A stretch of 64,000 bases of DNA from Oscillospiraceae bacterium (GTDB lineage: Bacteria > Bacillota > Clostridia > Oscillospirales > Acutalibacteraceae), in NCBI GenBank assembly GCA_015065805.1, contig SVPN01000004.1, positions 17,186 to 81,185 of the forward strand. The letters are read 5' to 3'. The notes under the pieces are model-generated. The model was not told where the DNA came from. It worked only from the letters and a program-made list of their open reading frames with translations, and searched no databases. The translations under genes were made by a program, and so were the position numbers. This document shows positions 4,503 to 47,694 of the stretch, in pieces; position 1 is the first letter of the stretch; every line of letters begins with the position of its first letter.

Positions 4503-7196
4503 ATGGCAACATTGCTTTACAAAACCCGCGGATCGGCTTCTCCGCAGGGCAAACCCAAGGTCTACCTCTGCTGTCACCCCGAGGACGCCGAACGCTTCAC
4601 CGAAGCCGTGTGCGACGAACTGCTCCAAAAGCAAAACTGCGCCGTGTGGTATTTGGAAGACCCGCACGCCGTGCGCGACGAAGAGCTGCTCGACGATCTC
4701 AAATCGATGCAGTTGTTCGTGATGCCCGTCACAAGGCGACTGCTTTCCACCGAAAACCCCGCCATCGACACGGAGTTTGCGTTTGCGACGGAGCATCACA
4801 TCCCCGTGTTACCGCTGATGCAGGAGGACGGACTGGACGTGCTGTTCAACGAACGTTGCGGCGATCTGCAATACCTCAGCCGCTTTGTCTCCGACCCCAC
4901 CGCTATCCCCTATGACGAAAAGCTTGCAAACTATCTGTCCTCAGTGCTCATCGGTGACGAGCTTGCCGAAAAGATCCGCGCCGCCTTTGACGCGTATGTA
5001 TTTTTAAGCTACCGCAAAAAAGACCGCCGCTATGCGCAGGAGCTGATGTGCCTGATCCATAAGCACGACTTTGCGCGCGATATCGCCATCTGGTACGATG
5101 AATTCCTCACCCCGGGTGAAAACTTCACCGATGCCATCCGCAAAGCCTTGCGGGACAGCGAGCTGTTTGTGTTAGCGGTCACCCCGCACCTCACCGAACC
5201 CGACAACTACGTGATGACCACGGAATACCCGCTTGCGCGCGAAGAGGGCAAGCCCGTCTTACCCGCGCAGATGTGCCCGACCGACCGTGACGCACTGGCA
5301 GGTGCCTTTGACGGCATTCCCGCGTGCACCGATGCGCACGACGATGCGGCAATGTCCGACGCGTTGCTTGACGCATTGCGGGCGGTCGCCTGCCGCGAAA
5401 ACGACACCCCCGAGCACAATTTCTTTATCGGTCTTGCCTATCTCGGCGGTGTCGATGTGGAGGTAGACCGCGACCGCGCCCTGACGCTGATCACCTCCGC
5501 GGCAGAGGAAGGCTTGACCGAAGCACTCGACAAGCTCGTGGAGATGTACCGAAACGGCATCGGTGTCGAACGCAACTTCCGCACCGCTATTCACTGGTTA
5601 GAACGAAAAGCGCAGTTTGCGCAAAAGCGGTACACCGACAACCCCACCGAAGAAAACGCCAACGATCTCTTTTGGTGCTTTATGGATTGCGGCGATGCGT
5701 TAAAAGGCATTGCCGATCTTGACGGTGCAAAAGCGTACTATCAAAAAGGGTTGGAGCTTCGCGTCACCCTTGCCGACGAAACGGGAACGGTCGAAGCCCG
5801 CCGCGATCTGTCGGTCAGCTACGAAAGGTTAGGCGATATTGCGAAAGCCCAAGGCGATCTTGACGGTGCAAAAGCGTACTATCAAAAGGGCTTGGAGCTC
5901 TCGCTCACCCTTGCCGACGAAACGGGAACGGTGCAGGCGCGCCGTGATCTCTCAATCAGCTATAATAAGTTAGGCGATATTGCCGAGACCCAAGGCGATC
6001 TTGATGCAGCAAAAACGTATTACCAAAAAGGCTTGGAGCTTCGCGTCACCCTTGCCGACGAAACGGGAACGGTCGAAGCCCGCCGCGATCTCTCGATCAG
6101 CTACGAAAGGTTAGGCGATATTGCGAAAGTCCAAGGCGATCTTGACGGTGCAAAGGCGTACTATCAAAAAGGCTTGGAGCTTCGCGTCACCCTTGCCGAC
6201 GAAACGGGAACGGTCGAAGCCCGCCGCGATCTTTCAGTCAGCTACGATAAGTCAGGCGATATTGCCGAGGCTCAAGGCGATCTTGACGGTGCAAAGACGT
6301 ATTACCAAAAAGGCTTGGAGCTTGCCGTCACCCTTGCCGACGAAACGGGAACGGTAGAGGCGCGCCGTGATCTCTCGGTCAGCTACGAAAGGTTAGGCGG
6401 CATTGCCGAAGCCCAAGGCGATCTTGACGGCGCAAAAGCGTATTATCAAAAAAGCCTGGAGCTTGCCGTCACCCTTGCCGACGAAACGGAAACGGTGCAG
6501 GCCCGCCGTGATCTCTCGATCAGCTATAATAAGTTAGGCGATATTGCGAAAGTCCAAGGCGATCTTGACGGTGCAAAGACGTATTACCAAAAAGACTTGG
6601 AGCTTGCCGTCACCCTTGCCGACGAAACGGGAACGGTCGAAGCCCGCCGCGACCTGTCGGTCAGCTACGAAAAATTAGGCGATATTGCGAAAGCCCAAGG
6701 CGATCTTGACGGTGCAAAGACGTATTACCAAAAAGACTTGGAGCTCTCGCTCACCCTTGCCGACGAAACGGGAACGGTGTTAGCACGCCGCGATCTGTCG
6801 GTCAGCTATAACAGACTCGGTGATATTGCCGAGGCCCAAGGCGATCTTGACGGTGCAAAGGCGTACTATCAAAAGGGCTTGGAGCTTCGCATCACCCTTG
6901 CCGACGAAACGGGAACCGCTGAAAGCATCGATGATCTTGCCATATCGCACTACAAACTCGCCTTTGTCAGCGATACCGCCGAAAAAGTCACCCATCTTCG
7001 CGAAGCGTTGCGACTCTTCACCCTGCTTTGCGAGCAATGCCCGCAGGTGCCGATTTACCGACAAAGACGCGATATCGTGCAGAGCGAGCTTGACAAGCTC
7101 ACTCCCGCCGACACAAGCGGCAACAATACCTCCCCCAAAAAGCGCAACCCTCTTGAAAATGAACTGCAAAACCTCTTCAACAGCAAAAAGCCGTAA
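4503..7196 (+). CDS. Double TIR-domain protein with Sel1-like repeats and nine 47-aa TPR-like repeats
   Basis: RBS AAGGAAGTGA upstream. Residues ~165-260 (YVFLSYRKKD...LFVLAVTPHL...TTEYPLA...PVLP) form a TIR_2-type domain. Residues ~18-105 are a recognisable paralog of it (VYLCCHPED...LFVMPVTRRL...DTEFAFA...PVLP). Residues ~305-370 are Sel1-like (LAYLGG..., MYRNGIGVERNFRTAIHWLERKA). Nine GDLDGAKxYYQKGLEL..TLADETGTVEARRDLSVSYxxLGDIA units follow. No signal peptide or TM segment. Confidence 0.8.
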   Translation: MATLLYKTRGSASPQGKPKVYLCCHPEDAERFTEAVCDELLQKQNCAVWYLEDPHAVRDEELLDDLKSMQLFVMPVTRRLLSTENPAIDTEFAFATEHHIPVLPLMQEDGLDVLFNERCGDLQYLSRFVSDPTAIPYDEKLANYLSSVLIGDELAEKIRAAFDAYVFLSYRKKDRRYAQELMCLIHKHDFARDIAIWYDEFLTPGENFTDAIRKALRDSELFVLAVTPHLTEPDNYVMTTEYPLAREEGKPVLPAQMCPTDRDALAGAFDGIPACTDAHDDAAMSDALLDALRAVACRENDTPEHNFFIGLAYLGGVDVEVDRDRALTLITSAAEEGLTEALDKLVEMYRNGIGVERNFRTAIHWLERKAQFAQKRYTDNPTEENANDLFWCFMDCGDALKGIADLDGAKAYYQKGLELRVTLADETGTVEARRDLSVSYERLGDIAKAQGDLDGAKAYYQKGLELSLTLADETGTVQARRDLSISYNKLGDIAETQGDLDAAKTYYQKGLELRVTLADETGTVEARRDLSISYERLGDIAKVQGDLDGAKAYYQKGLELRVTLADETGTVEARRDLSVSYDKSGDIAEAQGDLDGAKTYYQKGLELAVTLADETGTVEARRDLSVSYERLGGIAEAQGDLDGAKAYYQKSLELAVTLADETETVQARRDLSISYNKLGDIAKVQGDLDGAKTYYQKDLELAVTLADETGTVEARRDLSVSYEKLGDIAKAQGDLDGAKTYYQKDLELSLTLADETGTVLARRDLSVSYNRLGDIAEAQGDLDGAKAYYQKGLELRITLADETGTAESIDDLAISHYKLAFVSDTAEKVTHLREALRLFTLLCEQCPQVPIYRQRRDIVQSELDKLTPADTSGNNTSPKKRNPLENELQNLFNSKKP
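5712..6980 (+). repeat. Nine in-frame tandem 141-bp repeats (47-aa units) inside the TIR/TPR gene
   Basis: Unit boundaries were checked at 5712 and 5853, a 141-nt period. Most units differ by only a few substitutions by eye. The last unit degenerates in its second half. Confidence 0.9.
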
Positions 7197-34130: not shown

Positions 34131-34952
34131 TTGATCGAGTTCAGAGGCGTGCATAAAACATATGATAACGGCACAAAGGCGCTGCGCGATGTCAACATCA
34201 ACATCGAAAAGGGCGAATTTGTGTTTATCGTCGGCTCCTCGGGCGCCGGCAAATCCACCTTTCTCAAGCTCATTATGCGCGAGGAGGTTCCCAACGCCGG
34301 TGAGGTGATCGTCAACGGCTACAAGCTCTCGAAGCTTAAGCGCCGCGAGATCCCGTATTTCCGCCGTACGATGGGCATCGTGTTTCAGGATTTCCGCCTG
34401 ATCCCCACGATGAACGTGTTTGACAACGTGGCGTTTGCTATGCGCGTAACGGGTGCATCCAAGCGCGAGGTGCGCAAACGTGTCCCCTATATTTTGGGAC
34501 TTGTCGGTCTGCAGAATAAAGCTCGTTGCTTCCCGCAGGAGCTGTCGGGCGGCGAACAGCAGCGTGTCAGCCTGGCACGTGCACTTGTCAACAACCCTTC
34601 GCTGATCATCGCGGACGAGCCCACGGGTAATATCGACCCCGAAATGTCCTATGAAATTATGGAGCTTCTCACCGAGATCAACCGCCGCGGCACGACCATC
34701 CTGGTGGTCACGCACGAGCACGATCTGGTGCAGGCATTCAAGCGCCGTGTCATCGTGATCGACGGCGGTACGGTCGTATCCGATGTCCCGCAGGAGGACA
34801 ATGCCGAAACACCGCCCACAGCAGGAAGCGACGTCGTCTCGGATGTGCTGGATACCATTCAGGAAACCGCGGCACCCGAAACCGATCCCGTGGATGCAGT
34901 GCTTGCGGACTTTGCAAGCGATTATAAGGCAAACGGAGGTGACGCACAATGA
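34131..34952 (+). CDS. ftsE: Cell division ATP-binding protein FtsE (with ~45-aa acidic C-terminal extension)
   Basis: TTG start after AAAGGAGGTG. It has Walker [10 protein letters not shown], signature LSGGEQQR and Walker [12 protein letters not shown], and overlaps ftsX by 4 nt. Confidence 0.9.
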
Positions 34953-35869
34953 AGCTGAGCAGTCTCGGATATCTCATCAAAGAAGGCTTTCGCAACATCA
35001 AGCAAAACAGCTTTATGTCCATCGCCTCCGTGCTGGTGCTGGTTTCCTGCCTGTTGCTGTCGGGTGCCGCCTATCTCGTGTTTGTCAACGTGGAATACGG
35101 CTTTGAATGGGCGTACGACCAGAACATCGCCATTGTCTGGGCAACAGAGGATGTTGACGAGGCACAGCTGACAACGCTCGGCGATCAGTTGCGTTCCCTC
35201 AACAACGTCGGCAGTGTGGAATTCATTTCCAAAGAACAGGTTCTGCAGGATTACACCAACCAGATCCCCGAAGCGACCTTTGAGTCGTTGCAGGGAGAAA
35301 ACAACCCGATGCTCGACGCCTACAAGGTCACCTTTGTGGATCTGAACCTTGCCACACAGACGCTGGATCAGATCCGTACCTTTGAGAATGTCGATGATAT
35401 CTCCTACTACGCCGACGTTGCGCAGGTTCTTGTGTCCATCCGCAACGCCGTGATGAAGATCGGCGGTTGCATCATTGCCATGCTGCTGTTCGTGTCCCTT
35501 TTCATCATCTCCAACACCATCAAGCTGACGGTGTACAGCCGCCGCCTGGAGATCGGTATTATGAAATCGGTCGGTGCAACCAAAGCGTTCATCCGACTGC
35601 CCTTTATGGTGGAAGGTATGGTGCTCGGCTTCTGCGCGGGCTCTCTTGCCTTCGGTATTCTCTATTTTGTCTATGCACGACTGATCACGGTGCCCATCGG
35701 ACAGATCCAATTTGTGTCGATGTCCGTTGAGGGTATGCTGGCGACATTCCCCGTGTGGGCGGAACTGCTGGTCGGCTTCCTGCTGATCGGTACGCTGACG
35801 GGTATGATCGGCAGCGGCATCTCCATCGGTCGTTACCTGAAAGAAGAAAGCGGTGTCTCAGTTGACTGA
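34949..35869 (+). CDS. ftsX: Cell division permease FtsX
   Basis: IKEGFRNIKQN N-terminus, a large extracellular loop after TM1 and a C-terminal FtsX permease domain with 3 TM segments. Confidence 0.9.
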   Translation: MKLSSLGYLIKEGFRNIKQNSFMSIASVLVLVSCLLLSGAAYLVFVNVEYGFEWAYDQNIAIVWATEDVDEAQLTTLGDQLRSLNNVGSVEFISKEQVLQDYTNQIPEATFESLQGENNPMLDAYKVTFVDLNLATQTLDQIRTFENVDDISYYADVAQVLVSIRNAVMKIGGCIIAMLLFVSLFIISNTIKLTVYSRRLEIGIMKSVGATKAFIRLPFMVEGMVLGFCAGSLAFGILYFVYARLITVPIGQIQFVSMSVEGMLATFPVWAELLVGFLLIGTLTGMIGSGISIGRYLKEESGVSVD

Positions 35870-37445
35870 TCTGTTGAAAAACAGACAAATCCGAATATTC
35901 GTACTTCGCGCGATCGCTTTGGTGCTTTGCACAGCGATGCTTCTTTCGCTGTGCCCGAACAGCTCCTTTTCCGCCCCTGCTGTCTATGCGCAGGGATCGG
36001 TGGAGGATCTGACCGCACAAAAAGAAGCGCTTGCCGCCGAGCAAGCGTTGCTTGCTCAGCAACGCGATGAAACCGCTTCTTCCCTGGAAGAACAAAAACT
36101 CCAGGACGAGATCATTCGCAAACAGATCGAAGCCAAATCCGAAGAGATCGGCATCAACCAGGCGTTGTTAGCCGCCCTTGAGGAAGCGATCGCCTCGAAA
36201 ACCGCGGGCATCGCCGCGCAGGACAGCGCCATCGCCGCACTGGATAAGGAAATCGCACAACAGCAAGCGGATCTGCGCGTTCAGCTGCGCGGCATCTCGC
36301 AAAAAAACGGTGTGCTGTCGGTTCTTCAGCTGATCCTCAACAGCAGTACATACACCGAATATCTCATCGGCTTTAAGGTGTCTGAGCAGATTTCTCAGCG
36401 AAACGAACAGCTTCTGATGCAGCTTGAGCAAAACATCCAAGCCGCTCAAAACGCACGCAACACCCTCAAGACCGACAAGGCGGCGCTGGAGATCGAACAC
36501 TCTCAGGCCGCCGCTGTGCAGGCGGAGCTGGAAAACGGCAAAGCCCACCTGCAACAGCTTTACAACGAATCCCACGCTTTGTCCGAGCAGATGGAGCAAA
36601 ACGTTGAATACCTCAACGAACAGATCGCCGTTATGGAGCAAGAGCAGGCGTATATGCAAAGCACCATTGAGGCGATCAAGGAGCAGATCCGTCTGGAAGA
36701 AGAGGCAAAGCGCCGTGAGGAAGAGGAAAAGAGACGTCAGGAGGAAGAAGAGCAAAAGCGTCTGGAAGAGGAACAGCGCCGTGAAGAGGAAGAAAACGGT
36801 GACAACGAAAGCTCCGATGACGAAAGCTCCGATGACGAAAGCTCCGATGACGACGAGGATCCCTCCGAGGATACCGGATCCGACGGCGAAGACGGCACCG
36901 AGGATGAAAACGATCCCGAGGACGATCCCGAAGATGACTCCGAGGACGATCCCGAGGATGACTCCGAGAACGATTCTGAAGACTCTTCGCTTGAAACAAT
37001 GCTTTGGCCCGCTCCCACCTGCCTTGTGATCACCAGCAGCTTTAAACTCCGTGATCTTGAAGAGGACAGCGCGGGTGCCAAATGGCACAACGGTGTGGAT
37101 ATCGCCTGCTACGGTGATGCCGAAGGCGAACCGATCATTGCCGCCGCATCGGGCAAAGTCCGCGTGTCCAACCGCTACGATTCCTACGGCGGCGGATACG
37201 GATATTACACCACGATCGACCACGGCTACGATTCCTACGGCCGACGCATCATCACTCTATACGCCCACTGCAGTGAAGTCCTCGTGTACGAAGGACAGGA
37301 AGTGGAAGCAGGCGAAGTGATCGGCTATGTCGGCAACACGGGCAACTCCTACGGTGCCCACCTGCACTTTGAGGTGCTTGTGGATTTTGTTGCCGTCGAT
37401 CCTACCGACTACCTTGACATCAGCGATATCGACATTTTGGGCTAA
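35853..37445 (+). CDS. Coiled-coil M23 (LytM-type) metallopeptidase, EnvC/PcsB-like candidate FtsEX partner, paralog 1
   Basis: Signal anchor, about 270 aa of heptad-rich coiled coil, then an acidic low-complexity linker and an M23 domain with HxxxD (WHNGVD), YAHC and HxH (AHLHFEV). The GTG start overlaps ftsX; a TTG at 35874 is an alternative start. Confidence 0.85.
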   Translation: MSQLTDLLKNRQIRIFVLRAIALVLCTAMLLSLCPNSSFSAPAVYAQGSVEDLTAQKEALAAEQALLAQQRDETASSLEEQKLQDEIIRKQIEAKSEEIGINQALLAALEEAIASKTAGIAAQDSAIAALDKEIAQQQADLRVQLRGISQKNGVLSVLQLILNSSTYTEYLIGFKVSEQISQRNEQLLMQLEQNIQAAQNARNTLKTDKAALEIEHSQAAAVQAELENGKAHLQQLYNESHALSEQMEQNVEYLNEQIAVMEQEQAYMQSTIEAIKEQIRLEEEAKRREEEEKRRQEEEEQKRLEEEQRREEEENGDNESSDDESSDDESSDDDEDPSEDTGSDGEDGTEDENDPEDDPEDDSEDDPEDDSENDSEDSSLETMLWPAPTCLVITSSFKLRDLEEDSAGAKWHNGVDIACYGDAEGEPIIAAASGKVRVSNRYDSYGGGYGYYTTIDHGYDSYGRRIITLYAHCSEVLVYEGQEVEAGEVIGYVGNTGNSYGAHLHFEVLVDFVAVDPTDYLDISDIDILG

Positions 37446-37481
37446 GCCCTTCGTGCTATAATTCAGAAAGTAGGTACTTTT

Positions 37482-38798
37482 GTGTTCGATTCTTACAAAT
37501 CATTCGCTTTGCGCATACTTTGTGTTCTGTTATCCCTTGCCTTGCTGGCGGGCAGTGCGGTCTGCGTATATGCAGAGGACAGCATCGACGAACTGACTTC
37601 ACAAAAGGACGATCTTGCTCTTCGTCAGGAAGAGCTTGCCGCCAAGCGCGACGAAGCGGCTGCTTCGCTGGAAGAACAACAGGAGCAAAGCAATGTGATC
37701 CGTGAGCAGATTGCCGCAAAGTCCGAGGAGATCGCACTCAACGAACAAATCCTGACAGAACTGGACCGAAAGATCCGAAACACCTCGGAGATGATCGCCT
37801 CAAAAGAGGAAGAAATTGCAAAGCGGGAACAGGAAATCCATCTGCGCCGCGAGACCCTTCGCACACGTCTGCGTGCCATCTCAAAAAAGAGTGTGTTGTT
37901 GTCCTTTTTTCAGTTCCTGTTCGGCAGAAATTCTTATGCGGATTTTTTGATGGGGTTTAAAGTGACCGAACGTGTCTCCGAAAACGACCAACAGATGATG
38001 GATGCACTGGAAGCCGACATCGCCGCACTGGAAACCGCCAAAAACAAGCTCAAAACCGACAAGGCCGCTCTGGAGATCGAACGCAGTCAGGCGGAAGCGA
38101 TCCGTAACGATACAGCACAAGACAAAGATTCTCTCCAACAGCTTTACAACGAATCCGACGCACTCGCGCAGGAAATGGCACAGGATGTGAACTACCTGCA
38201 ACATCAACTCGATGAAACCCTCTCAAAGCAACAAGCGCTTCAGACGGAGATCGATGCGATTCTTGAACGTATTCGTGCCGAAGAAGAAGCCGCACGCAAG
38301 GAAGCGGAAGAAAACGGCGAGGAATACCGTCCTTCCGATGACCTGATCTTCACGGGAAACGGCGACGGCACCATGCTTTGGCCGACTCCCACCTGTCCCG
38401 TCATCACCAGCAGCTTCGGCTGGCGCGAATGGAGCGAGACCTGGCACAAGGGCATTGATATTGCGTGCTACGGTGACGCCGAAGGAGAACCGATTGTTGC
38501 CGCGGCAGACGGGGTCGTCCACGTATTCTATGACGAATACGGCTACGGCAATTATATCACAATTGACCACGGCTATGACAGCGACGGTTGCCGTGTTCTG
38601 ACGGTGTATGCCCACTGCAGTCGTGTAGATGTCTCCTACGGCGATACCGTTACCGCCGGTCAACAGATCGGTCTTGTGGGAGACACCGGCAGATCCGATG
38701 GTGCTCATCTCCATTTTGAGGTCAATATTGACGGTGTCGCCGTTGATCCGATCTCAAACGGCTATCTGACAACGGACGGCATCGACGTCCTGAACTGA
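37482..38798 (+). CDS. Coiled-coil M23 metallopeptidase, paralog 2
   Basis: Same architecture as paralog 1: WHKGID, YAHC, AHLHFEV. The GTG start follows AGAAAGTAGGT. Confidence 0.85.
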   Translation: MFDSYKSFALRILCVLLSLALLAGSAVCVYAEDSIDELTSQKDDLALRQEELAAKRDEAAASLEEQQEQSNVIREQIAAKSEEIALNEQILTELDRKIRNTSEMIASKEEEIAKREQEIHLRRETLRTRLRAISKKSVLLSFFQFLFGRNSYADFLMGFKVTERVSENDQQMMDALEADIAALETAKNKLKTDKAALEIERSQAEAIRNDTAQDKDSLQQLYNESDALAQEMAQDVNYLQHQLDETLSKQQALQTEIDAILERIRAEEEAARKEAEENGEEYRPSDDLIFTGNGDGTMLWPTPTCPVITSSFGWREWSETWHKGIDIACYGDAEGEPIVAAADGVVHVFYDEYGYGNYITIDHGYDSDGCRVLTVYAHCSRVDVSYGDTVTAGQQIGLVGDTGRSDGAHLHFEVNIDGVAVDPISNGYLTTDGIDVLN

Positions 38799-38831
38799 TC
38801 TGCCGCATATTACCACACAGCGACCCTCTCT

Positions 38832-40148
38832 TTGTCGCTGTATCGAGAAAGTAGGTGTTGCGATTTGAATCGTGTATTCTGTGTCGCTCAACCGTTTATA
38901 AAATGTCTGTGTGTTCTGCTGGCTATGTCGGTGCTTCTCAGCTCCGTTTCCGTATTTTGGGAGAACGCTCCCGCTTCGGTTTGCGTTTCTGCAGAGGAAA
39001 GCGAAGAGGAACTGCGTGATCAGAAGGAAGAACTGCAACAAAAGCAGGAGGAGTTAGAGGCACTTCGGAACGAATCCGCCGCCACACTCGAAGAGCAGGA
39101 AGCACAAAAGGATATCATCTCCGAACAAATCGCTCTGAAAATTGAAGAGATCGAACTCAATCAACAGCTTGTCAACGAGATGGATGCCAAAATCGAGGAT
39201 GCCAATTATCAGATCGCCCTCAAACAGCAATCCATCGCCGAAAAGGAAGCCGAGATCGCCGTGGCTTTTGAAGCACTGCAGGTTCGCCTTCGCGCCCTCT
39301 CCAAAACCGGCTCTCTCACCTCTCTCCTTCAGATGATCATCAGCTCCGACGGTTTTCTTGATTATCTCCTGAAAGCCAAGGCAATGCAACGTCTTGCAAA
39401 AGAAAACGAACGCCTGATGCAGGAGCTGGAAGGCGAAATGCAGGCGATCAATGCACAAAAAGATGCTTTGGAAGCAGAAAAAGCCAAGATCGAAGAGGAA
39501 CGCAAGCCGATCGTTCAGCTCCAGACAGACCTGAACAACGCCAAGATGGACCTGGATGTGCTTTACAGTGAGGCAAACGCCATCACCGAAAAGCTTAACC
39601 AGGACATTGATCATTACAACGCCGCCATCGCACAATCCGAAGCGGATCAGGCGGCACTGGAAGAAAAGATCAACGAGCTGCTGATGCAAAACGCCGGCAG
39701 CGGTCAGGCATACCTGAGCGGCTCGATGTACTGGCCCGCTCCCAGCTGTAACTACATCTCCTCCACCTTCAAGTTCCGCTGGGGCAAATGGCACAACGGC
39801 ATCGACATCTGCGGCGGCGGTTGCTACGGCACCTCCGTTGTAGCGGGTGCCGACGGTATCGTCACCTACGCCGACTGGATGAGCGGCTACGGCTGGTGTG
39901 TGATCGTGGATCACGGTACCGATTCCAACGGCTACAACGTTACCACCCTGTACGCACACTGCGCCGAGCTGTATGTGTACGAGGGTCAGTCCGTGTCGGG
40001 CGGCGAAACCATTGCCGCTGTCGGCAGCTCGGGTAATTCCACCGGTCCCCACCTGCATTTTGAGGTGCGTCTTGACGGTTCGGCGGTTGACCCCATCTCC
40101 AACGGCTATGTTTCCACCGGCGGCATCATCATTGACGAGTCGCTGTAA
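38832..40148 (+). CDS. Coiled-coil M23 metallopeptidase, paralog 3
   Basis: Same architecture: WHNGID, YAHC, PHLHFEV. The likely true start is the TTG at 38865, which sits behind the same AGAAAGTAGGT motif seen before paralog 2. Confidence 0.85.
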   Translation: MSLYRESRCCDLNRVFCVAQPFIKCLCVLLAMSVLLSSVSVFWENAPASVCVSAEESEEELRDQKEELQQKQEELEALRNESAATLEEQEAQKDIISEQIALKIEEIELNQQLVNEMDAKIEDANYQIALKQQSIAEKEAEIAVAFEALQVRLRALSKTGSLTSLLQMIISSDGFLDYLLKAKAMQRLAKENERLMQELEGEMQAINAQKDALEAEKAKIEEERKPIVQLQTDLNNAKMDLDVLYSEANAITEKLNQDIDHYNAAIAQSEADQAALEEKINELLMQNAGSGQAYLSGSMYWPAPSCNYISSTFKFRWGKWHNGIDICGGGCYGTSVVAGADGIVTYADWMSGYGWCVIVDHGTDSNGYNVTTLYAHCAELYVYEGQSVSGGETIAAVGSSGNSTGPHLHFEVRLDGSAVDPISNGYVSTGGIIIDESL

Positions 40149-40176
40149 CAGGCTTAACCGAAAGGAACGATTCTTT

Positions 40177-41484
40177 ATGATCCGTTCTTCTTATCTGAAA
40201 ATTGTATTGGCTGTGCAGATCATCGCTCTGGTGATCTGCACATTCCCATACCCTGCCCTTGTCAGCTCGGCACAGGGAACGACCGTTCCGAGCGCACCGC
40301 AATCCATCGGCGAAACCTTTAACCCCGGGGATGCCTCCTATGTGCAATCGCTTGAGGATCAGCGCGCGCAATTACAGCATCAGGCAAACGAATTACAGCA
40401 AGCGCGCCAATTCTATTCTGATTCCTTAGACGGTCTGATCCAGCAAAAAGACAACATCGAAAAGCAGATCACGCTCAAGCAACAGGAGATCGACATCAAT
40501 GCGCTTATTTTGGAAAGCCTCAATGCGCAGATCGACATCACCGACGAACAGCTGATCCTCGCTGAACAAACGATGCTTCTCAAGCGCCAGACCCTGCTGA
40601 CGCGCTTTGAAGAATTGCGTCAAAAGCTCCGCGATCTGTCCAAGGGCGGCAGTATGACGCCGATTCAGATGCTGTTGAATACCGATAGCTTCACGAGCTT
40701 TCTCATCAATATGAAAATGGCATCCCGTATTTCGCAGGCTGATCAGCAAGCGATCAGTGCTCTGGAAACGGAGCTTGCCGAAGTACAGGCACAGCAGGAA
40801 GAGCTGTCACAACAGCAGACCCGTCTTGAGGAAGCGCGCCGACCGCACGAAGCCGCCTCTGTCGAGCTGGAAATCGCCAAAACAGAGCTGCTGTCGCTTC
40901 ACGCGGAATCGATAAAGATCGAAGATATGCTCTCGGAAAACCTGACCTATTACCGCACGCAGTATCTGGAGCTTCTCAACGAACAGCGTAAGCTGCATCT
41001 GCAGCTCACCGATATCCTCGGCAAATACGATATGAGCGGTGTTGCCGCCCCGACCCTGATGTTCTGGCCGACACCCGAATGCACCATTATCACCAGCTCC
41101 TATAAAGCACGCTGGGGCAAGTGGCACTACGGTCTGGACATCGCCTGCTACGGTGACGCAACAGGCAAGTCGGTTCTTGCCGCGGCAGACGGCACCGTGA
41201 TTTTTGCGGGCTATGACGAAAGCGGCTACGGCAATTATGTCATCATCGATCACGGCTACGATGTGTTCGGCAGACGCGTTGTCACTTTGTACGGACATTG
41301 CCACGAATTACTTGTCAAAGAGGGCGACATCGTGCTCGGCGGTCAGACCCGCATCGCCCTTGTGGGAGATACCGGCCGTTCCTCGGGCGCACATCTGCAT
41401 TTTGAGGTGCGCCTTGACGGCTCAGCAGTTGACCCCGTCGGCGAAGGCTTCGTGCTCACCGACAACATCGCCATCGTCGGGTGA
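40177..41484 (+). CDS. Coiled-coil M23 metallopeptidase, paralog 4
   Basis: ORF 39973 trimmed to the ATG at 40177 (MIRSSYLKIVLAV..., signal anchor). It has WHYGLD, YGHC and AHLHFEV. Confidence 0.85.
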   Translation: MIRSSYLKIVLAVQIIALVICTFPYPALVSSAQGTTVPSAPQSIGETFNPGDASYVQSLEDQRAQLQHQANELQQARQFYSDSLDGLIQQKDNIEKQITLKQQEIDINALILESLNAQIDITDEQLILAEQTMLLKRQTLLTRFEELRQKLRDLSKGGSMTPIQMLLNTDSFTSFLINMKMASRISQADQQAISALETELAEVQAQQEELSQQQTRLEEARRPHEAASVELEIAKTELLSLHAESIKIEDMLSENLTYYRTQYLELLNEQRKLHLQLTDILGKYDMSGVAAPTLMFWPTPECTIITSSYKARWGKWHYGLDIACYGDATGKSVLAAADGTVIFAGYDESGYGNYVIIDHGYDVFGRRVVTLYGHCHELLVKEGDIVLGGQTRIALVGDTGRSSGAHLHFEVRLDGSAVDPVGEGFVLTDNIAIVG

Positions 41485-41500
41485 GCAATTTCGATTTTTA

Positions 41501-41529
41501 TTGACAATATTTCTTTAGTTTTGTATAAT
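41501..41529 (+). promoter_or_regulatory. Perfect-consensus sigma-A promoter TTGACA-17-TATAAT
   Basis: The hexamers at 41501-41506 and 41524-41529 and the 17-nt spacer were read directly. It sits in AT-rich DNA 35-53 nt upstream of the TIR-LRR start codons. Confidence 0.7.
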
Positions 41530-41563
41530 TGAAATATGTTCTTTATCTCTGTATATATAATTT

Positions 41564-43240
41564 ATGAAAGGCGTGCTGTTTATGTCTGACTCCAAGCCGA
41601 TGGAAATTGCTCTGGATCCCAACTTTAAAGATGTTCCCGCACCGTTTGATCCCAAAAAAGAATTGCGTGAAGGTGACCCCTTCATTTTTGTGAGTTATTC
41701 ACATCACAATAAAGCACAGGTCTATCCGGTTCTCGATTATCTCCATAACGAAAAAAAATTCCACATCTGGTATGACCCTGCTATGGAATGTGGCGTTCAG
41801 GATTTCCGCGATGAATTACGCAGAAAAATCGAAAGCTGTACAGCTGTTCTTCTGTTCGTTTCCAAAGAATCGATGTCCTCTATCTACTGCGGTATGGAAA
41901 TTATCGTGGCACAAGAGAACCAAAAACCGTTTTATATCGTCCGTCTTGACAAAACCGAATATCCTCCCGCTTTCGAGATTCTGCTCGGAAAAATCCACGC
42001 AATTGACGGAACAAATCCCCAGGCTGCCGGCCGCGATCTCAAAGATGTTCTTCCCCCGGAAACAATGGAACGCCTGATTTACGAAGGCAATGTATTGACA
42101 AGCTGCGAACATTACGGTGCTACTATTGAAATCGGAAAAGAAGCCAGTTTTATCGGTGACAGTGCTTTTCACGGTAATCTCACGCTGGAGAACATCTCCT
42201 TCCCCGAAACGATCCGTGCAATCGGAAAGGAAAGCTTCCGCGGATGCACGAATCTGACCGAAATTCTGATTCCGTATGCAACCGAACGCATCGGTGAAAG
42301 CGCATTCCGCGACTGCACAAGTCTGAAGAAACTGGTTGTGCAAAATCAGTGCATCAAGATCGGCGAGCGAGCTTTTGAAAACTGCTCCACCCTTGAGGAT
42401 GTTCAACTCCCCGAAGGCCTGACCGAGATTTACGGCGGTGTCTTTAACAGTTGCCGCGGCCTGAAACATATTACTCTTCCTAAAATGTTGACTGTTCTCG
42501 GCGAAAGTGCATTTTCGGATTGTTCAAGCCTCACAGATATCGACATTCCCGCCTCCGTAACCAAGATCGACGATCTGGTTTTTAACGGGTGTACTAAACT
42601 GACAACCATCACTCTTCACGAAGGCTTGAAAAAGATCGGTAAAGGTGCTTTCAAAAATTGCTCGGTACTGGAAGAAGTTGAAATCCCGGCGTCTGTTTCA
42701 TTGATCAATGACGCTGTATTCCGCGGCTGTAAAGCTTTGTTTTCCATTAAGGTTTCGCCGAAAAACAAACATTATAAATCTGAGTTGACTTGTCTGGAAG
42801 GTTCTCGTTCTCACGTTCTGTTCAACAAAAACAAGTCCATCTTACTCGCCTACCCGGGTGCCGTTGTTGAGCAGGATTATACCGTCCCCGACAGTGTTGT
42901 TACGATCAGTGACTGGGCCTTCTGCGAAGCAAGAAATCTGTCTAAGGTGATCATTCCCGACAGTGTACAGTCCATCGGTGAAGGTGCATTCTGCAATTGC
43001 ACCAATTTGCTTAGGGTATCGATTCCCGATTCCGTTACACAAATTGATGATTGTGCTTTCCGCGGATGCAGCGGCTTGAAGGAAATCCACATTCCCTCTT
43101 CGGTCGTTGAATTCGGTTGGGGTGTGTTTGACGGTTGTGATGAGCAGCTGAAAGTGTACTGTGAAATGGGTTCTGCGATTGACACCTATTGCAAAGGAAA
43201 CCGTATCAACACGGTATATTTAGATAAAGTTGAGGCATAA
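41564..43240 (+). CDS. Cytosolic TIR domain protein fused to BspA-type leucine-rich repeats
   Basis: Residues ~38-130 are a TIR_2-like domain: PFIFVSYSHHNK...HIWYD...AVLLFVSKESMSSIYCGMEIIVA...PFYIVRL, with candidate catalytic Glu112 (nt 41897-41899). Residues ~185-545 hold about 14 repeats of the I..AF..C..L..I.IP.SV..I pattern (LRR_5/BspA type). No signal peptide or TM segment. An alternative start ATG at 41582 has a better SD (GAAAGG). Confidence 0.8.
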   Translation: MKGVLFMSDSKPMEIALDPNFKDVPAPFDPKKELREGDPFIFVSYSHHNKAQVYPVLDYLHNEKKFHIWYDPAMECGVQDFRDELRRKIESCTAVLLFVSKESMSSIYCGMEIIVAQENQKPFYIVRLDKTEYPPAFEILLGKIHAIDGTNPQAAGRDLKDVLPPETMERLIYEGNVLTSCEHYGATIEIGKEASFIGDSAFHGNLTLENISFPETIRAIGKESFRGCTNLTEILIPYATERIGESAFRDCTSLKKLVVQNQCIKIGERAFENCSTLEDVQLPEGLTEIYGGVFNSCRGLKHITLPKMLTVLGESAFSDCSSLTDIDIPASVTKIDDLVFNGCTKLTTITLHEGLKKIGKGAFKNCSVLEEVEIPASVSLINDAVFRGCKALFSIKVSPKNKHYKSELTCLEGSRSHVLFNKNKSILLAYPGAVVEQDYTVPDSVVTISDWAFCEARNLSKVIIPDSVQSIGEGAFCNCTNLLRVSIPDSVTQIDDCAFRGCSGLKEIHIPSSVVEFGWGVFDGCDEQLKVYCEMGSAIDTYCKGNRINTVYLDKVEA

Positions 43241-43242
43241 CT

Positions 43243-44370
43243 ATGACCGCGTTGCAAACCGTATTAGGATTCATCAAAAAAAACGTGGTTATGACGGTGG
43301 CGCTTTGCGCTGCCGTCATAACCTCCTTTCTTGTACCTATCGATAAAGAGTATCTGGGGTATTTCGATTTCAAAACGCTCACCTGTCTGTTTTGTGTATT
43401 GGCGGTCGTGTGCGCACTTCGGAACATCCGCTTTTTCTACATTCTCGCAAAAAAGATCGTGCAGCTCTTTAAAAATGCCCGTATGAGCATTCTGGGATTG
43501 GTGTATATCACCTTTATCGGCTCTATGCTGATTGCTAACGATATGGCATTGTTGACGTTTCTGCCGCTCGGTTTCTTTGTACTGAGCACAACCGGCAAAG
43601 AAAAATATATGGCGTTCACGTTCATTATGCAAAATATCGCCGCCAACCTTGGCGGTATGCTTACCCCGTTCGGTAATCCGCAAAACCTGTATTTATACAC
43701 CGCCTTTGAAATTCCCAATCTCGAATTTATGGCGATTATGGCGCCACCCTTTATTGTCTCGATTCTTTTGATCACGCTGTGTTGTATTGTTTTCGTAAAA
43801 CCGGAGCCGTTGGAAATTGAGGATGACCGCGCAACACTTCCCGTCGGTCGCACCGTTTTGTATCTTTGCCTGTTCGCATTGTCGATCGTCATTATTTTTC
43901 GCGGTATTCCGTACTGGATCGGCCTGATCATCATTCCGATCGTACTGCTGTTTGCGGACCGTAAAGCCTTGCTGGATGTTGACTATCCGTTGCTGTTCAC
44001 CTTTGTGTTTTTCTTTATTTTTGCAGGCAATATGGCACGCATTGATATCGTCCGTGACTTCTTCTCGACGCTTCTTGAAAAAAGCACACTGCTGTTCAGC
44101 GCTCTTTCCTGCCAGATCATCAGTAATGTTCCCTCGGCGATTCTGCTCTCGCAATTCACCGAAAACTACCGTGATCTTCTGGTTGGTGTTAACATCGGCG
44201 GTGTCGGCACCCTGATCGCATCGCTGGCGAGTCTCATCACTTTCCGTGAGTATACCAAGCACAACCCCGGTAAAGGTGGCTATTATATCAAAGTGTTTTC
44301 CGCTTTCAACTTCGGTTTTCTGGTGATTTTGATCGGCTTTATGATGGTGTGGAATCATTTTGTTATTTAA
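43243..44370 (+). CDS. ArsB/NhaD-superfamily (CitMHS-like) anion/ion permease
   Basis: 375 aa, about 10-11 TM segments. The GSMLIANDMALLTFLP and LTPFGNPQNLYLY motifs are typical of this superfamily. It starts 2 nt after the TIR-LRR stop, behind a GAGG RBS. Confidence 0.65.
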   Translation: MTALQTVLGFIKKNVVMTVALCAAVITSFLVPIDKEYLGYFDFKTLTCLFCVLAVVCALRNIRFFYILAKKIVQLFKNARMSILGLVYITFIGSMLIANDMALLTFLPLGFFVLSTTGKEKYMAFTFIMQNIAANLGGMLTPFGNPQNLYLYTAFEIPNLEFMAIMAPPFIVSILLITLCCIVFVKPEPLEIEDDRATLPVGRTVLYLCLFALSIVIIFRGIPYWIGLIIIPIVLLFADRKALLDVDYPLLFTFVFFFIFAGNMARIDIVRDFFSTLLEKSTLLFSALSCQIISNVPSAILLSQFTENYRDLLVGVNIGGVGTLIASLASLITFREYTKHNPGKGGYYIKVFSAFNFGFLVILIGFMMVWNHFVI

Positions 44371-44378
44371 AAAAGGAG

Positions 44379-45191
44379 ATGACTTCTTTGCCGGCATATT
44401 TCCACTATACCATTGACGCTTACGGTTGCCTATCACAGCAAACCAATAAACTGATGGTGATCAATGATTTTTTGGTGACCACGGCAACAGAATTGGATAT
44501 GCAGCCCGTTATGCCACCGTTTCTTGTTCCCTATTATTATTGTGACGATGCTCAGGATGTCGGCATCAGCGCCTTTTGCATTTGCGCAGACGGGTCGCAC
44601 ATCACCATCCACACGTTCCCTGAGCGTTCCTGCTACTTCATTGACATTCTGACCAATTCCTTTTTGGAGGAGGCAAAGGTCAAAGATCTTGTGTGCAAAC
44701 AGCTTTACGCGGGCAACTTCAGCATTCAGACATTGGATCGCCGCGATTTTGCATCCGATCCGAGTGCCGTTGACACACAAAATGATTTCGGTCCGCATTT
44801 TATGATTACGGTCAATAATCCCAAGACCTCTTTTGAGGCAATCTACAAGTGGCTGGAAACCATTGCCCCGAAAATCAATATGAACCCCATTTCCCGCCCG
44901 TATGTCATTTATGACCGTGTTGAGGACCCGCAAACCATTTCCGGTATTTTAGTCGTCGCACAAAGTCACATTGCCTTCCATTACTGCATTGAAGACGATG
45001 TTGCCAACATCGATATCTTTTCCTGCAGCTTTCTGGATCTGGATGTGATCGAAGCCATTATCCACGAGGACTTCGGTATGGACGCACGGATCGATCTGTT
45101 TGCGCGCGGCAGTAAGCATCGCTATGAATGCCAGCACTATTCGCGTCAGACCCGCATCGAAAAAAATAAAACCTGGCAAAAAAATCTGTAA
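44379..45191 (+). CDS. Fused double S-adenosylmethionine decarboxylase (SpeD/AdoMetDC)-fold protein, non-canonical
   Basis: The N-terminal half has HYTIDAYGC and GISAFCICADGSHITIHTFPE...FIDILT. The C-terminal half has SGILVVAQSHIAFHYCIED...NIDIFSCS. Both match the class 1 SpeD pattern (H...YGC; G.S..V.ISESH...HT.PE...D.FTC), but the ES cleavage dipeptide is replaced by GS and QS. The start is the ATG at 44379 or the TTG at 44388 (better SD spacing). Confidence 0.6.
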   Translation: MTSLPAYFHYTIDAYGCLSQQTNKLMVINDFLVTTATELDMQPVMPPFLVPYYYCDDAQDVGISAFCICADGSHITIHTFPERSCYFIDILTNSFLEEAKVKDLVCKQLYAGNFSIQTLDRRDFASDPSAVDTQNDFGPHFMITVNNPKTSFEAIYKWLETIAPKINMNPISRPYVIYDRVEDPQTISGILVVAQSHIAFHYCIEDDVANIDIFSCSFLDLDVIEAIIHEDFGMDARIDLFARGSKHRYECQHYSRQTRIEKNKTWQKNL

Positions 45192-45195
45192 TAAC

Positions 45196-45227
45196 AAAAA
45201 ACGCAACCGAAACGGTTGCGTTTTTTG
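45196..45227 (+). terminator. Intrinsic terminator closing the TIR-LRR/permease/SpeD-like operon
   Basis: AACGCAACCG-AAA-CGGTTGCGTT hairpin followed by TTTTTT, 5 nt after the stop. Confidence 0.9.
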
Positions 45228-45300
45228 TTGCTTTGGGGTTGATTCGGGTAAGGTATCTGGTGTATAATTAAAGTATACAATCGTACTTTTGAGGTGTGTT

Positions 45301-47694
45301 ATGAACTTTCGGGATTACTTACACGATCATATCGTGATACTTGACGGCGGCATGGGGACGCTGTTGCAGGCACAAGGTCTGCAACCCGGCGAATACCCCG
45401 AGCGGTGGAACCTTACCCATCCCGACGCTGTTGTTGCCGTTCATAAAGCCTATTACGAGGCAGGTAGCACCATCGTTTCCACCAACACCTTCGGCGCCAA
45501 TTCGCTGAAATTTTCTTCGGATGAGCTGGCATCGATCGTGAAAGCGGCGGTTGCCAATGCCAACGCCGCCAAAGCGCAATGCAAGGACGGTCTTCCCCGC
45601 TTTGTCGCGCTGGATATCGGTCCGACGGGTAAGCTACTCAAACCCCTTGGCGATCTTGATTTTGAGGACGCCGTCTCCGTTTTTGCGCAAACCGTCCGGT
45701 TGGGCGTTCAATGCGGTGTCGATGCCATTCTCATCGAAACGATGAACGACAGCTACGAAACCAAAGCGGCATTGCTTGCCGCCAAGGAGAACAGCGATCT
45801 TCCCGTGCTTGTATCCAACGCCTACGGCGAAGACGGCAAGCTGATGACGGGAGCTACTCCCGCCGCAATGGTCGCGATGGCCGAAGGCTTAGGCGCGGAT
45901 GCCATCGGTGCCAACTGCTCACTCGGTCCTGCACAGCTCCGCGGTGTCGTGGAGGAATTGCTTGCCAATGCCTCCATCCCCGTGCTGTTCAAGCCGAATG
46001 CAGGCCTCCCGAAGATGGACAACGGCAACACGGTGTTTGATATCACCCCTGCCGAATTTGCCGACGAGGTAGCATCGCAATTGGCAAAGGGTGTGCGGCT
46101 TGCCGGTGGCTGCTGCGGTACAACCCCCACCTATATCGCCTTATTAAGCGAACGTGCCGCCACGGTATCCCCCGTCCCTCTCACAAGCAAAAACCGCACC
46201 GTGGTGTCCTCCTATTCGCACGCTGTGGTCTTTTCGGACACCCCCGTGCTGATCGGTGAACGCATCAACCCCACGGGTAAAAAACGCTTTAAGCAGGCAC
46301 TTGTTGAGCAGGATATGGACTATATCCTCAACGAAGGCATCCGTCAGCAGGAAAAGGGTGTCCATATTTTGGATGTCAATGTCGGTCTGCCCGATATCGA
46401 CGAGCCTGCGATGCTGACACGAACGGTATGTGACCTGCAGGCGATTCTGGACTTACCGCTGCAGATCGACACCTCCGACCCTGTGGCGATGGAAGCCGCT
46501 TTGCGCCGCTATAACGGCAAGGCGCTCATCAACTCCGTCAACGGCAAAAAGGACAGTATGGCCGCAATTTTTCCGCTTGTCAAAAAATACGGCGGCGTGG
46601 TAGTAGCACTGACGCTGGACGAAAACGGCATTCCCGAAACCGCCGAAGGTCGCGTTGCCATTGCTCAAAGGATTCTCGACACGGCTGCCTCCTACGGCAT
46701 CGATAAACGCGATATCGTATTTGATACCCTGGCAATGACCGTCAGCGCCGATAACCGTGCCGCTCTTGCAACCCTCGGTGCTTTACACACCATTCGCTAT
46801 ACGCTCGGCTGTCACACCTCGCTTGGCGTATCCAATGTTTCCTTCGGACTTCCCTGCCGCGATGCGGTCAACAGCACCTTCTTTGCACTGGCGCTTCAAA
46901 GCGGGCTGTCTGCCGCCATTATGAATCCGCATTCGGCGGATATGATGAAGGTATACTATGCCTACAATGCCCTGAAAGGCACAGATGAGAATTGTGCCGC
47001 TTACATTGCGCACGCAGAGGAATTTGCCGTTACAGCCGCTTCTGCGCCCACTGTCGGGGCTTCTGCCGCGATCGACGCCGCATCAGAACTCCAGCACGCC
47101 GTTATCAAAGGCTTGCAGGAGAAAGCCGCCACGCTAACACGTGCCCTTCTTGCACACACAGCGCCGCTGGATATTGTCAACAACGACATCATCCCCGCAC
47201 TGAATGTTGTCGGGGACGGCTTCGAAAAGAAGACGATGTATCTTCCTCAGCTTCTGATGAGTGCCGAAGCCGCCAAAAGTGCTTTTGAGGTGATCAAATC
47301 CACTATGAACAGCGACGCCTCTCACGCAAACGGCACGGTTGTTTTGGCAACGGTACACGGCGATATTCACGATATCGGCAAAAACATCGTCAAGCTATTG
47401 CTGGAAAACTACGGCTTTTGCGTTGTGGATCTCGGCAAGGATGTTCCGCCCGAAGTCATCGTGCAGCAGGCAGTCACGCTTCACGCACCCCTTGTAGGGC
47501 TCAGTGCGTTGATGACCACCACCGTTCCTGCAATGGAGGAAACCATCCGACAGCTTCGCTGTGATGCACCGTGGTGCAAGGTCGTTGTCGGCGGTGCCGT
47601 GCTGACACAGGACTATGCCGACCGCATCGGCGCCGATAAATATGCCAAGGACGCGATGGAAACGGTTCGCTACGCACAGGAGCTTCTCTTATAA
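45301..47694 (+). CDS. metH: Methionine synthase (cobalamin-dependent, lacking the C-terminal AdoMet activation domain)
   Basis: ATG at 45301 after GAGG. It has a homocysteine S-methyltransferase domain, a pterin-binding domain, a B12 cap and a B12-binding domain with DxHxxG (DIHDIGKN). About 797 aa, as in the Clostridia/Thermotoga-type short MetH. Confidence 0.9.
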   Translation: MNFRDYLHDHIVILDGGMGTLLQAQGLQPGEYPERWNLTHPDAVVAVHKAYYEAGSTIVSTNTFGANSLKFSSDELASIVKAAVANANAAKAQCKDGLPRFVALDIGPTGKLLKPLGDLDFEDAVSVFAQTVRLGVQCGVDAILIETMNDSYETKAALLAAKENSDLPVLVSNAYGEDGKLMTGATPAAMVAMAEGLGADAIGANCSLGPAQLRGVVEELLANASIPVLFKPNAGLPKMDNGNTVFDITPAEFADEVASQLAKGVRLAGGCCGTTPTYIALLSERAATVSPVPLTSKNRTVVSSYSHAVVFSDTPVLIGERINPTGKKRFKQALVEQDMDYILNEGIRQQEKGVHILDVNVGLPDIDEPAMLTRTVCDLQAILDLPLQIDTSDPVAMEAALRRYNGKALINSVNGKKDSMAAIFPLVKKYGGVVVALTLDENGIPETAEGRVAIAQRILDTAASYGIDKRDIVFDTLAMTVSADNRAALATLGALHTIRYTLGCHTSLGVSNVSFGLPCRDAVNSTFFALALQSGLSAAIMNPHSADMMKVYYAYNALKGTDENCAAYIAHAEEFAVTAASAPTVGASAAIDAASELQHAVIKGLQEKAATLTRALLAHTAPLDIVNNDIIPALNVVGDGFEKKTMYLPQLLMSAEAAKSAFEVIKSTMNSDASHANGTVVLATVHGDIHDIGKNIVKLLLENYGFCVVDLGKDVPPEVIVQQAVTLHAPLVGLSALMTTTVPAMEETIRQLRCDAPWCKVVVGGAVLTQDYADRIGADKYAKDAMETVRYAQELLL

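Follow-up and report, generated by a model that had tools for sequence, protein, structure and literature searches.

TIR-based signalling through nicotinamide adenine dinucleotide (NAD+) is common to bacterial, plant and animal immunity, and the described bacterial TIR systems come without leucine-rich repeat (LRR) sensors; in a survey of TIR systems in Escherichia coli, LRR features appear absent from bacterial TIR systems (PMC11350192). This report concerns a gene, here called TIR-LRR, in a 64,000-nucleotide stretch of an Oscillospiraceae bacterium (assembly GCA_015065805.1, contig SVPN01000004.1; the whole stretch is the window). The gene appears to encode a cytoplasmic protein in which a TIR domain is joined to a sensor-type solenoid of the LRR_5 class, and it is followed at once by a gene for an IT-superfamily permease. 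We put at roughly 0.5 the probability that TIR-LRR is a Thoeris-like sensor and signal synthase with a membrane-transport output, working with the permease as a two-gene operon and serving as a conflict or immune module.

Precedents exist for both halves of this model. In type X Thoeris of Bacillus sp. BH32, a ThsB TIR protein is paired with the ion-channel effector ThsK (10.64898/2025.12.03.692087). The present pair shares with it the layout of a Firmicute two-gene operon, in which a TIR bearing the catalytic Glu is encoded with a polytopic membrane protein of transport type as the presumed output. It differs in that TIR-LRR carries a 360-aa LRR_5 sensor and in that its partner has a secondary-transporter fold of the IT superfamily (CitMHS/ArsB-like) rather than being an ion channel; moreover, defence has been validated for type X, whereas the TIR-LRR/permease pair is known here from sequence alone. 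The other half is represented by E. coli TIR-II, a single TIR+TPR protein whose TIR active-site residue is required for defence (PMC11350192). Both TIR-II and TIR-LRR have an N-terminal TIR_2 domain fused to solenoid repeats and no NTPase, but the repeats of TIR-LRR are of the beta/alpha LRR_5 type rather than alpha-helical TPR, and TIR-II is partner-free whereas TIR-LRR nearly always has a permease attached. Likewise, DSR2 is reported to be a SIR2 NADase with a HEAT-like repeat sensor that binds phage tail tube protein (PMC11263360, PMC10973363). The logic is alike, an NADase domain being restrained by a large repeat domain that directly recognises a structural protein of the phage with no NTPase involved, although the SIR2 catalytic fold, the single-gene organisation and the repeat type all differ from those of TIR-LRR.

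Plant TNL proteins and animal Toll-like receptors (TLRs) also hold TIR and LRR in one polypeptide, and the catalytic Glu is as in plant TIRs and SARM1. Unlike a TNL, TIR-LRR has no NB-ARC domain; unlike a TLR, it runs from TIR to LRR and has neither a transmembrane (TM) segment nor an extracellular LRR. The resemblance is convergence in domain use and not orthology, the LRR part being of the bacterial and protist BspA LRR_5 class. A first-pass annotation of this DNA, made from the letters and reading frames alone, had spoken of TLR/TNL-like logic; as an analogy this stands, TIR and LRR being indeed together, while LRR type, topology, TM segment and NB-ARC all speak against anything closer. BspA/LRR_5 surface proteins (4fs7, 4gt6, TpLRR 6mlx, PcpA 4cp6) have the same 23-residue solenoid, but they carry signal peptides or anchors and no enzymatic domain, whereas TIR-LRR is predicted to be cytosolic and is TIR-fused. 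TIR-LRR belongs without doubt to the TIR_2 and LRR_5 domain families. It lacks features that define the TLRs, the STAND/TNL proteins and TIR-II, and, with no known effector beside it, it also departs from each of the described Thoeris types. Full-text searches of the literature returned no description of TIR+BspA/LRR_5, of TIR+CitMHS or of a bacterial 'TIR-LRR'. A systematic Thoeris survey makes no mention of LRR, permease or RyR, and PF03600, PF02040, PF13306 and PF02026 are absent from its supplementary tables as available (10.64898/2025.12.03.692087). Proteins of this kind are already in databases but are unnamed and uncharacterised, with NCBI names that read just 'leucine-rich repeat protein' or 'TIR domain-containing protein'.

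Architecture of the TIR-LRR protein

Both domain matches in TIR-LRR are far above chance: Pfam TIR_2 covers residues 41-152 at E=1.2e-15 (58.5 bits, cut-off 28) and LRR_5 (PF13306) scores E=1.1e-81 (271 bits). The Pfam ThsB_TIR model reached 17.1 bits against a cut-off of 21.2. A single-sequence phmmer search of the N-terminal 179 aa against PDB gave no match, TIR relatives emerging by profile and fold search. Because the fold search with the full-length AlphaFold2 (AF2) model yielded mainly LRR proteins, a TIR-only model was built (predicted local distance difference test, pLDDT, 78). Foldseek of this model against PDB gave the SARM1 TIR domain at the top (E=2e-5, template-modelling score 0.61-0.73), with the TIR-APAZ of SPARTA, MyD88 and AbTir (0.65/0.73) among its other neighbours. 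TIR-LRR is thus modelled with a TIR fold closest to those of the NADase TIRs SARM1, SPARTA and AbTir.

In a profile alignment of the family TIR region to PDB sequences, the G-M-E112 column falls on the Glu of W-T-N-Y-E-L in AbTir and also on the Glu of W-C-x-x-E in plant TIR and TLR sequences, the position of the NADase catalytic Glu, as in SARM1 E642 and AbTir E208. Glu112 is invariant in 25 of 25 orthologues of the alignment and in another 69 derived from genomes, and a second, TIR-TPR protein of the window has it as well. It is the predicted catalytic Glu of what would be an NAD-cleaving TIR. The first-pass annotation had read a TIR fold and a Glu in the catalytic position from short motifs. 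These motifs are present (FIFVSY at 41681-41698, WYD at 41768-41776, LLFVS at 41849-41863, and SIYCGMEIIVA containing Glu112); profile, model and structural neighbours bear out the fold, and the alignment to AbTir and W-C-x-x-E together with the invariance argues for the Glu.

The remainder of the protein is built on a strict 23-residue period, and the full-length AF2 model (mean pLDDT 85.8, pTM 0.73) shows 10 + 5 solenoid strands with a beta-hairpin insert (~400-437) between them, in line with an earlier count of about 14 LRR_5-type repeats. Foldseek of this model retrieved the BspA-type LRR_5 structures 4fs7 (E=3e-17), 4gt6, 4h09 and TpLRR, and NCBIfam gave partial matches to the HupY/LrrG adhesin and to Gli349. 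The repeat scaffold IG-x-x-AF-x-x-C is almost invariant across the family. The most variable LRR sites are the x positions by the beta-strand, on the concave face (1.5-2.4 bits; positions 17, 18, 20, 21 and 23 of the repeat), a pattern that would fit ligand binding, though diversifying selection is not proven by it. Related TIR_2 domains carry alternative C-terminal modules (4 tandem TIRs, FGE-sulfatase, RCC1 or LRR_5), which looks like a modular effector-plus-sensor pattern. The closest non-orthologous TIR relatives, P0121 and P0122, are ~600 aa long and have four tandem TIR_2 domains.

TIR-LRR contains no signal peptide, lipobox or TM segment: the N-terminus is polar, and the best Kyte-Doolittle window reaches 1.0 where the threshold for a TM segment is 1.6 over 19 residues. 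Sortase motifs and wall-binding domains are likewise lacking in the protein. The reading frame is closed by a stop two codons ahead of the first ATG, so a hidden N-terminal extension or upstream signal peptide is impossible. A database protein identical to that of the window (P0001, 552 aa) begins at Met7 (nt 41582), and GAAAGG stands ~10 nt upstream of that codon. Pfam finds no STAND NTPase (NB-ARC/NACHT) in TIR-LRR, and by Pfam and AF2 none would fit between the end of the TIR (about aa 165) and the start of the LRR (about aa 171-195). The first-pass annotation was therefore sound in denying TIR-LRR an export signal and in denying both TIR proteins of the window a STAND NTPase. That the gene might be a pseudogene or an annotation artefact was considered and rejected, since the open reading frame (ORF) is intact and retains every catalytic position that is invariant in the family, and since four independent contigs encode the identical protein. 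Upstream of the gene, in a 79-nt AT-rich spacer that follows the fourth of a row of M23 peptidase genes, lies the sole sigma-70-type site matching at 12/12 positions within 41300-45400 (Table 1).

Family distribution and membrane partners

A protein search returned, among the matches listed, at least 120 clusters that share both Pfam domains, measure 544-558 aa and show 55-60% identity. When one genome per species was scanned, 121 of ~185,000 species genomes encoded a TIR-LRR relative with the same two-domain layout, and all 121 carriers are metagenome-assembled genomes (MAGs) of gut or rumen Clostridia: Acutalibacteraceae, Oscillospiraceae, Ruminococcus, Christensenellaceae and some Lachnospiraceae. 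The fusion of a TIR with BspA-type LRR had been called unusual at the outset. A cytosolic fusion it does appear to be; rare it is not, given the number of clusters and genomes and the purifying selection described below. The survey of this architecture and its neighbours that the first-pass annotation had suggested thus revealed both a family and a partner.

That partner is the permease. Pfam CitMHS matches the window permease at E=8.4e-26, and its ATG (43243) follows the TIR-LRR stop (43238-43240) 3 nt on. Neighbours were clustered for 77 TIR-LRR loci, and permease adjacency was counted over all ORFs in 74 non-redundant loci: an IT permease lies on the same strand and no more than 150 nt away in 66 of them, in most with a stop/start overlap of 1 nt, and two of the eight loci without an adjacent permease have too little sequence to judge. 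In 57 loci the gene directly downstream is a CitMHS-like permease of 375-380 aa (cluster 1); in loci without it, a 435-aa ArsB/CitMHS-like permease (cluster 6) stands at +1 or -1, and the two clusters share 26% identity over 145 aa. Three permease classes (1a, 1b and the ArsB-like cluster 6) occur beside TIR-LRR, and a neighbour-joining tree of TIR-LRR mostly follows permease class with few swaps, the deepest branches pairing with the ArsB-like class. The outer flanks of the 77 loci are highly variable while the permease is near-constant. The linkage thus appears to be old and to have been re-created with different paralogues, and for this reason it bears the signature of functional coupling rather than accidental synteny. 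The permease is a near-universal, translationally coupled partner of TIR-LRR and the most telling feature of the locus, one that the first-pass annotation had missed. A 490-aa permease homologue, P0271, was examined as a possible Rosetta-stone fusion and rejected as an internal duplication or assembly artefact.

The nearest relatives of the window by permease similarity are Acutalibacteraceae MAGs. Against its counterparts, the window TIR-LRR is 54-59% identical and the window permease 81-86%, and for this reason the window carries a divergent TIR-LRR allele beside a conservative permease; the nonsynonymous divergence, dN, falls from 0.46 in the TIR to 0.34 in the LRR and 0.19 in the permease. 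Twelve near-invariant family positions are altered in the window protein, including D49N, R67H, P125I and H146A, and every family-invariant position of the catalytic motif is kept. Within the permease ORF, 45 nt in, a conserved internal ATG (..VV-M-T..) sits inside a perfect GC-rich RNA hairpin (Table 1). Several orthologous permease genes (L044, L056, L067, L004, L055) have stems of 11-15 bp at the corresponding position, and the hairpin could be an intra-operon translational, attenuation or other regulatory element.

A second membrane protein recurs on the other side of TIR-LRR. In 33 of the 77 loci the gene directly upstream (-1), always on the same strand and with gaps of -4 to +33 nt, encodes a membrane protein of ~620 aa (cluster 2; L013:2108-3973 is an example) that has three TM helices at its N-terminus, a Rossmann-like core with GxGxxG, and a RyR (R12) domain at its C-terminus. 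Pfam, NCBIfam and PADLOC gave no match for this protein. Its C-terminus matches RyR domains in PDB, namely 6uhi (E=3e-6) and 3nrt of Bacteroides thetaiotaomicron. Domains of the RyR type bind cyclic ADP-ribose (cADPR) signals made by TIR proteins. That of the phage protein RyDEP binds cADPR via identified residues, and the B. thetaiotaomicron RyR-domain protein is a structural homologue of RyDEP (PMC13232231). All 34 distinct members of cluster 2 have H572, W575, H602 and D619, and the spacing of these residues matches that of the cADPR-binding residues of RyDEP when a 5-residue insert is allowed. From this spacing and from alignment to the B. thetaiotaomicron sequence, we infer that the four residues correspond to the RyDEP ligand-binding residues. 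Like RyDEP (PMC13232231), then, the neighbour ends in a RyR domain with an H..W...H...D constellation; unlike RyDEP, it is a cellular protein with a membrane anchor and a Rossmann-like core, and its gene goes with that of a TIR rather than against it. Because such a neighbour recurs with apparently intact ligand-binding residues, it argues that at the level of the family the TIR may make an ADP-ribose (ADPR)-type nucleotide that a membrane protein reads or terminates. The first-pass annotation had suggested intracellular ligand sensing coupled to NAD+ chemistry; the data would be in keeping with this, and the RyR-domain gene beside orthologues lends it indirect support. The pairing of a TIR gene with a RyR-domain gene also echoes the link between cADPR and the ryanodine receptor in animals.

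Other neighbours recur less often. At L026:11-1390, L040:1491-3527 and L031:3433-7917 and in about 12 related loci, the RyR-TM, TIR-LRR and permease genes are immediately preceded by a conserved block for three large unannotated proteins. These are of ~460 aa, ~678 aa and ~1,495 aa, the last having TM helices near its N-terminus and an HExxH motif near its C-terminus. The three proteins have no Pfam match above threshold and no PADLOC match, and they may either belong to the system or represent another one. Some TIR-LRR loci adjoin genes for Card1, AAA+ or TIR-HD proteins, further TIR genes, TraG or an integrase. At L001:10965-14286, a Card1-like nuclease and an AAA+ protein come before the TIR-LRR pair, and after it come a fusion of TIR_2 to HD_3 (983 aa in L002/L003) and a TIR_2 protein of 121 aa, which together look like a local cluster of nucleotide-signalling defence-type genes. 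None of the known Thoeris effectors considered (among them SIR2-SLOG, Macro-TM, caspase-like, DUF2270, DUF6650, SLATT, CMP hydrolase and ion channel) stands beside TIR-LRR; its neighbours in the window are the CitMHS permease, an M23 peptidase and an AdoMet_dc-like gene, with no PADLOC match among them.

A proposed immune module and alternative functions

In the sensor-and-synthase model, the LRR_5 solenoid would bind a protein trigger, likeliest one encoded by a phage or mobile element, or else the permease itself when perturbed, and binding would release or oligomerise the N-terminal TIR domains. The composite active site around Glu112 would then cleave NAD+, with either depletion or a cADPR-type signal as the consequence. 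Output would occur at the membrane through the co-translated permease, as altered ion or solute flux and growth arrest; the RyR-domain membrane protein, in the ~40% of related loci that have it, would bind the signal and join the output. The NADase or cyclase activity, the nature of the trigger, the effector role of the permease and the anti-phage role are all inferred from sequences and predicted structures, and an immune role is plausible. More tentative is the fuller proposal that TIR-LRR, the IT permease and, in many genomes, the RyR membrane protein make up an undescribed signalling system in which an LRR-gated TIR produces a cADPR-type nucleotide that controls transport proteins; this is possible, and we would not claim more for it.

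Several observations make an immune role less secure. TIR and LRR show the same degree of conservation (mean column entropy 0.85 versus 0.90 bits), and the ratio of nonsynonymous to synonymous substitution (dN/dS) is 0.055-0.07 for TIR, LRR and permease alike in the five gene pairs with unsaturated synonymous sites to which this analysis is limited. Low dN/dS and a conserved LRR seem unlike fast-evolving immune receptors; taken with the synonymous divergence, which is equal for the two genes, the low ratios indicate a pair that is probably functional and co-inherited. A permease of ~82% identity occurs without any TIR-LRR in abundant Ruminococcus and 'Apopatosoma' genomes, in a stable housekeeping setting made up of IMPDH, an alpha/beta hydrolase, the permease and a Sel1 protein, and hhalign detected no hidden TIR in the neighbouring Sel1-repeat protein (probability 0.1%). 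Given this TIR-less copy, the permease is probably a normal cellular protein to which TIR-LRR attaches and not a dedicated toxin, and no recognisable nucleotide-binding domain was found in it. No TIR-LRR orthologue was found on IMG/VR viral contigs, where the matches were LRR-only at 25-26% identity; the cassette therefore does not appear to be phage-borne. The flanks of TIR-LRR loci are mostly housekeeping or ordinary metabolism and the defence-island signal is weak, TIR_2 recurring in four of the 115 distinct flank families, AAA in three, and a handful of families matching a single PADLOC model. PADLOC itself gave partial, weak ThsB-TIR similarity for TIR-LRR (E=3e-4 to 3e-3) and no match for the permease, the RyR protein or the other recurrent neighbours. 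Finally, no homologue of the cluster-2 RyR protein is encoded in the window, which would therefore represent a minimal two-gene form.

Much of this evidence would suit a non-immune regulatory module, in which TIR-LRR binds to the housekeeping permease or keeps watch on it, or responds to an endogenous ligand, and NAD+-derived chemistry tunes transport, whether by local NAD+ hydrolysis or by a cADPR-type messenger that the RyR protein reads where present. Strong and equal purifying selection on both genes, an LRR scaffold conserved down to its exposed residues, housekeeping surroundings here and elsewhere, and the lack of phage copies are all as such a module would predict, as are a permease that evolves more slowly than its partner and also functions alone and a promoter whose consensus looks constitutive. 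The distribution speaks otherwise: patchy occurrence across species genomes, variable flanks and a low-GC islet look like an accessory, horizontally moved cassette and not like core physiology. In addition, other TIR, Card1 or AAA+ genes stand beside some loci, and to our knowledge every characterised bacterial catalytic TIR acts in conflict systems (for reviews, PMC11350192 and 10.64898/2025.12.03.692087). A purely regulatory function is thus judged unlikely, if well short of negligible. Rather less likely is that TIR-LRR is a self-contained, NAD+-depleting abortive infection protein whose LRR binds a phage protein and whose TIR is itself the effector, the permease being an operon passenger. 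Such a function has a validated parallel in single-protein TIR+repeat defence (PMC11350192), the closest structural relatives SARM1 and SPARTA are NAD+-depleting TIRs, and the permease can exist alone and lacks a nucleotide-sensing domain. A mere passenger, though, is hard to reconcile with an adjacency kept in 66 of 74 loci with stop/start overlap and established anew, now upstream and now downstream of the gene, with three distant IT-permease classes, and the recurrent RyR neighbour argues for a diffusible ADPR-type product over pure depletion.

The LRR class itself raises the question of export. LRR_5 proteins are typically surface adhesins, the partial NCBIfam matches and the annotations of the PDB neighbours as cell-surface proteins point the same way, and the bacteria that carry the gene are gut commensals. 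Tcp TIR proteins are known from bacteria. TIR-LRR might accordingly be a host- or microbe-interaction factor, a BspA-like adhesin with a Tcp-like TIR that blocks host TLR signalling or consumes host NAD+ after release by lysis or a non-classical route. We regard this as very improbable: the protein has none of the signals, anchors or wall-binding domains that export would lead one to expect, no secretion genes are adjacent, and its operon partners are an inner-membrane permease and a RyR-domain protein.

The surrounding window and the wider meaning of the family

Of the 56 ORFs of the window, the three with the lowest GC are TIR-LRR, the permease and the AdoMet_dc-like gene (0.457-0.459 versus 0.545 +/- 0.033). 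They form a 3.6-kb low-GC islet in a cell-division neighbourhood, between four M23/PcsB-type peptidase paralogues and MetH with the dcw cluster. No AdoMet_dc-like homologue lies beside the TIR-LRR/permease pair in other loci; as the gene is unlinked to the pair elsewhere, its membership of the module is doubtful, and it may have been acquired with the pair or separately. On the other side, 34131-41484 (+) holds FtsE/FtsX and then the four tandem coiled-coil PcsB-like M23 peptidase genes, and this fourfold expansion of an FtsEX-activated hydrolase directly upstream of the islet is unusual. An empty-site scan of metagenomes anchored on MetH found only relatives of no more than 73% identity with no shared synteny.

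Table 1. Coordinates of TIR-LRR, its domains and the nearby features of the window
Feature	Position	Strand	Details
TIR-LRR gene	41564..43240	+	558 aa from first ATG; probable start M7 at 41582 gives 552 aa
TIR domain	41675..42058	+	aa 38-165; Pfam TIR_2 (PF13676), AF2, Foldseek
Predicted catalytic Glu112 codon	41897..41899	+	motif S-x-Y/F-C-G-M-E, start of helix alphaC
BspA-type LRR_5 solenoid	42074..43162	+	aa 171-533; ~15 repeats of 23 residues; beta-hairpin insert ~aa 400-437
Sigma-70-type promoter TTGACA-17-TATAAT	41501..41529	+	12/12 match; upstream of TIR-LRR gene
Partner permease	43243..44370	+	375 aa, at least 8 predicted TM segments; IT superfamily, CitMHS-like
Perfect 17-bp GC-rich RNA hairpin	43287..43323	+	45 nt inside permease ORF; folding energy -30.5 kcal/mol, z -7.2 vs shuffles
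AdoMet_dc-like gene, two tandem domains	44388..45191	+	267 aa; GC 0.459; same low-GC islet
PcsB-like M23 paralogues	35853-37445, 37482-38798, 38832-40148, ~40177-41484	+	
Second TIR protein	4503-7196	+	897 aa; TIR_2 residues 166-258, then Sel1/TPR repeats

The second TIR protein of the window begins with 165 unannotated aa and conserves the Glu at the catalytic position. Its layout is that of E. coli TIR-II and of PDB 9m0n ('TPR protein', N-terminal TIR). It contains no NTPase, and the small ORFs that flank it have no Pfam matches. The earlier remark that both TIR proteins pair the domain with a repeat-type sensor was correct. No permease stands beside it, and the pairing is therefore specific to TIR-LRR.

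Its conserved membrane partners make TIR-LRR more interesting than a lone domain fusion, and its membership of a widespread, conserved family makes it less exceptional than the first-pass annotation implied. The family would show that bacteria too combine TIR and LRR in one cytosolic receptor, and it presents, in gut Clostridia that are abundant but little studied, a well-delimited module of two or three genes. Rather than a classical toxin, the module seems to use membrane transport as its output, by way of an IT-fold permease and a RyR membrane protein. If the fuller signalling proposal holds, TIR-LRR would be the first TIR immune-type sensor with a permease of secondary-transporter fold as obligate partner, whether guarded or effector. 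Likewise, should the RyR neighbour read a cADPR isomer made by the TIR, the evolutionary link that has been proposed between TIR signals and ryanodine-receptor domains would become directly testable, and the system would be a cellular prokaryotic counterpart of the axis that in animals leads from cADPR to the ryanodine-receptor domain.

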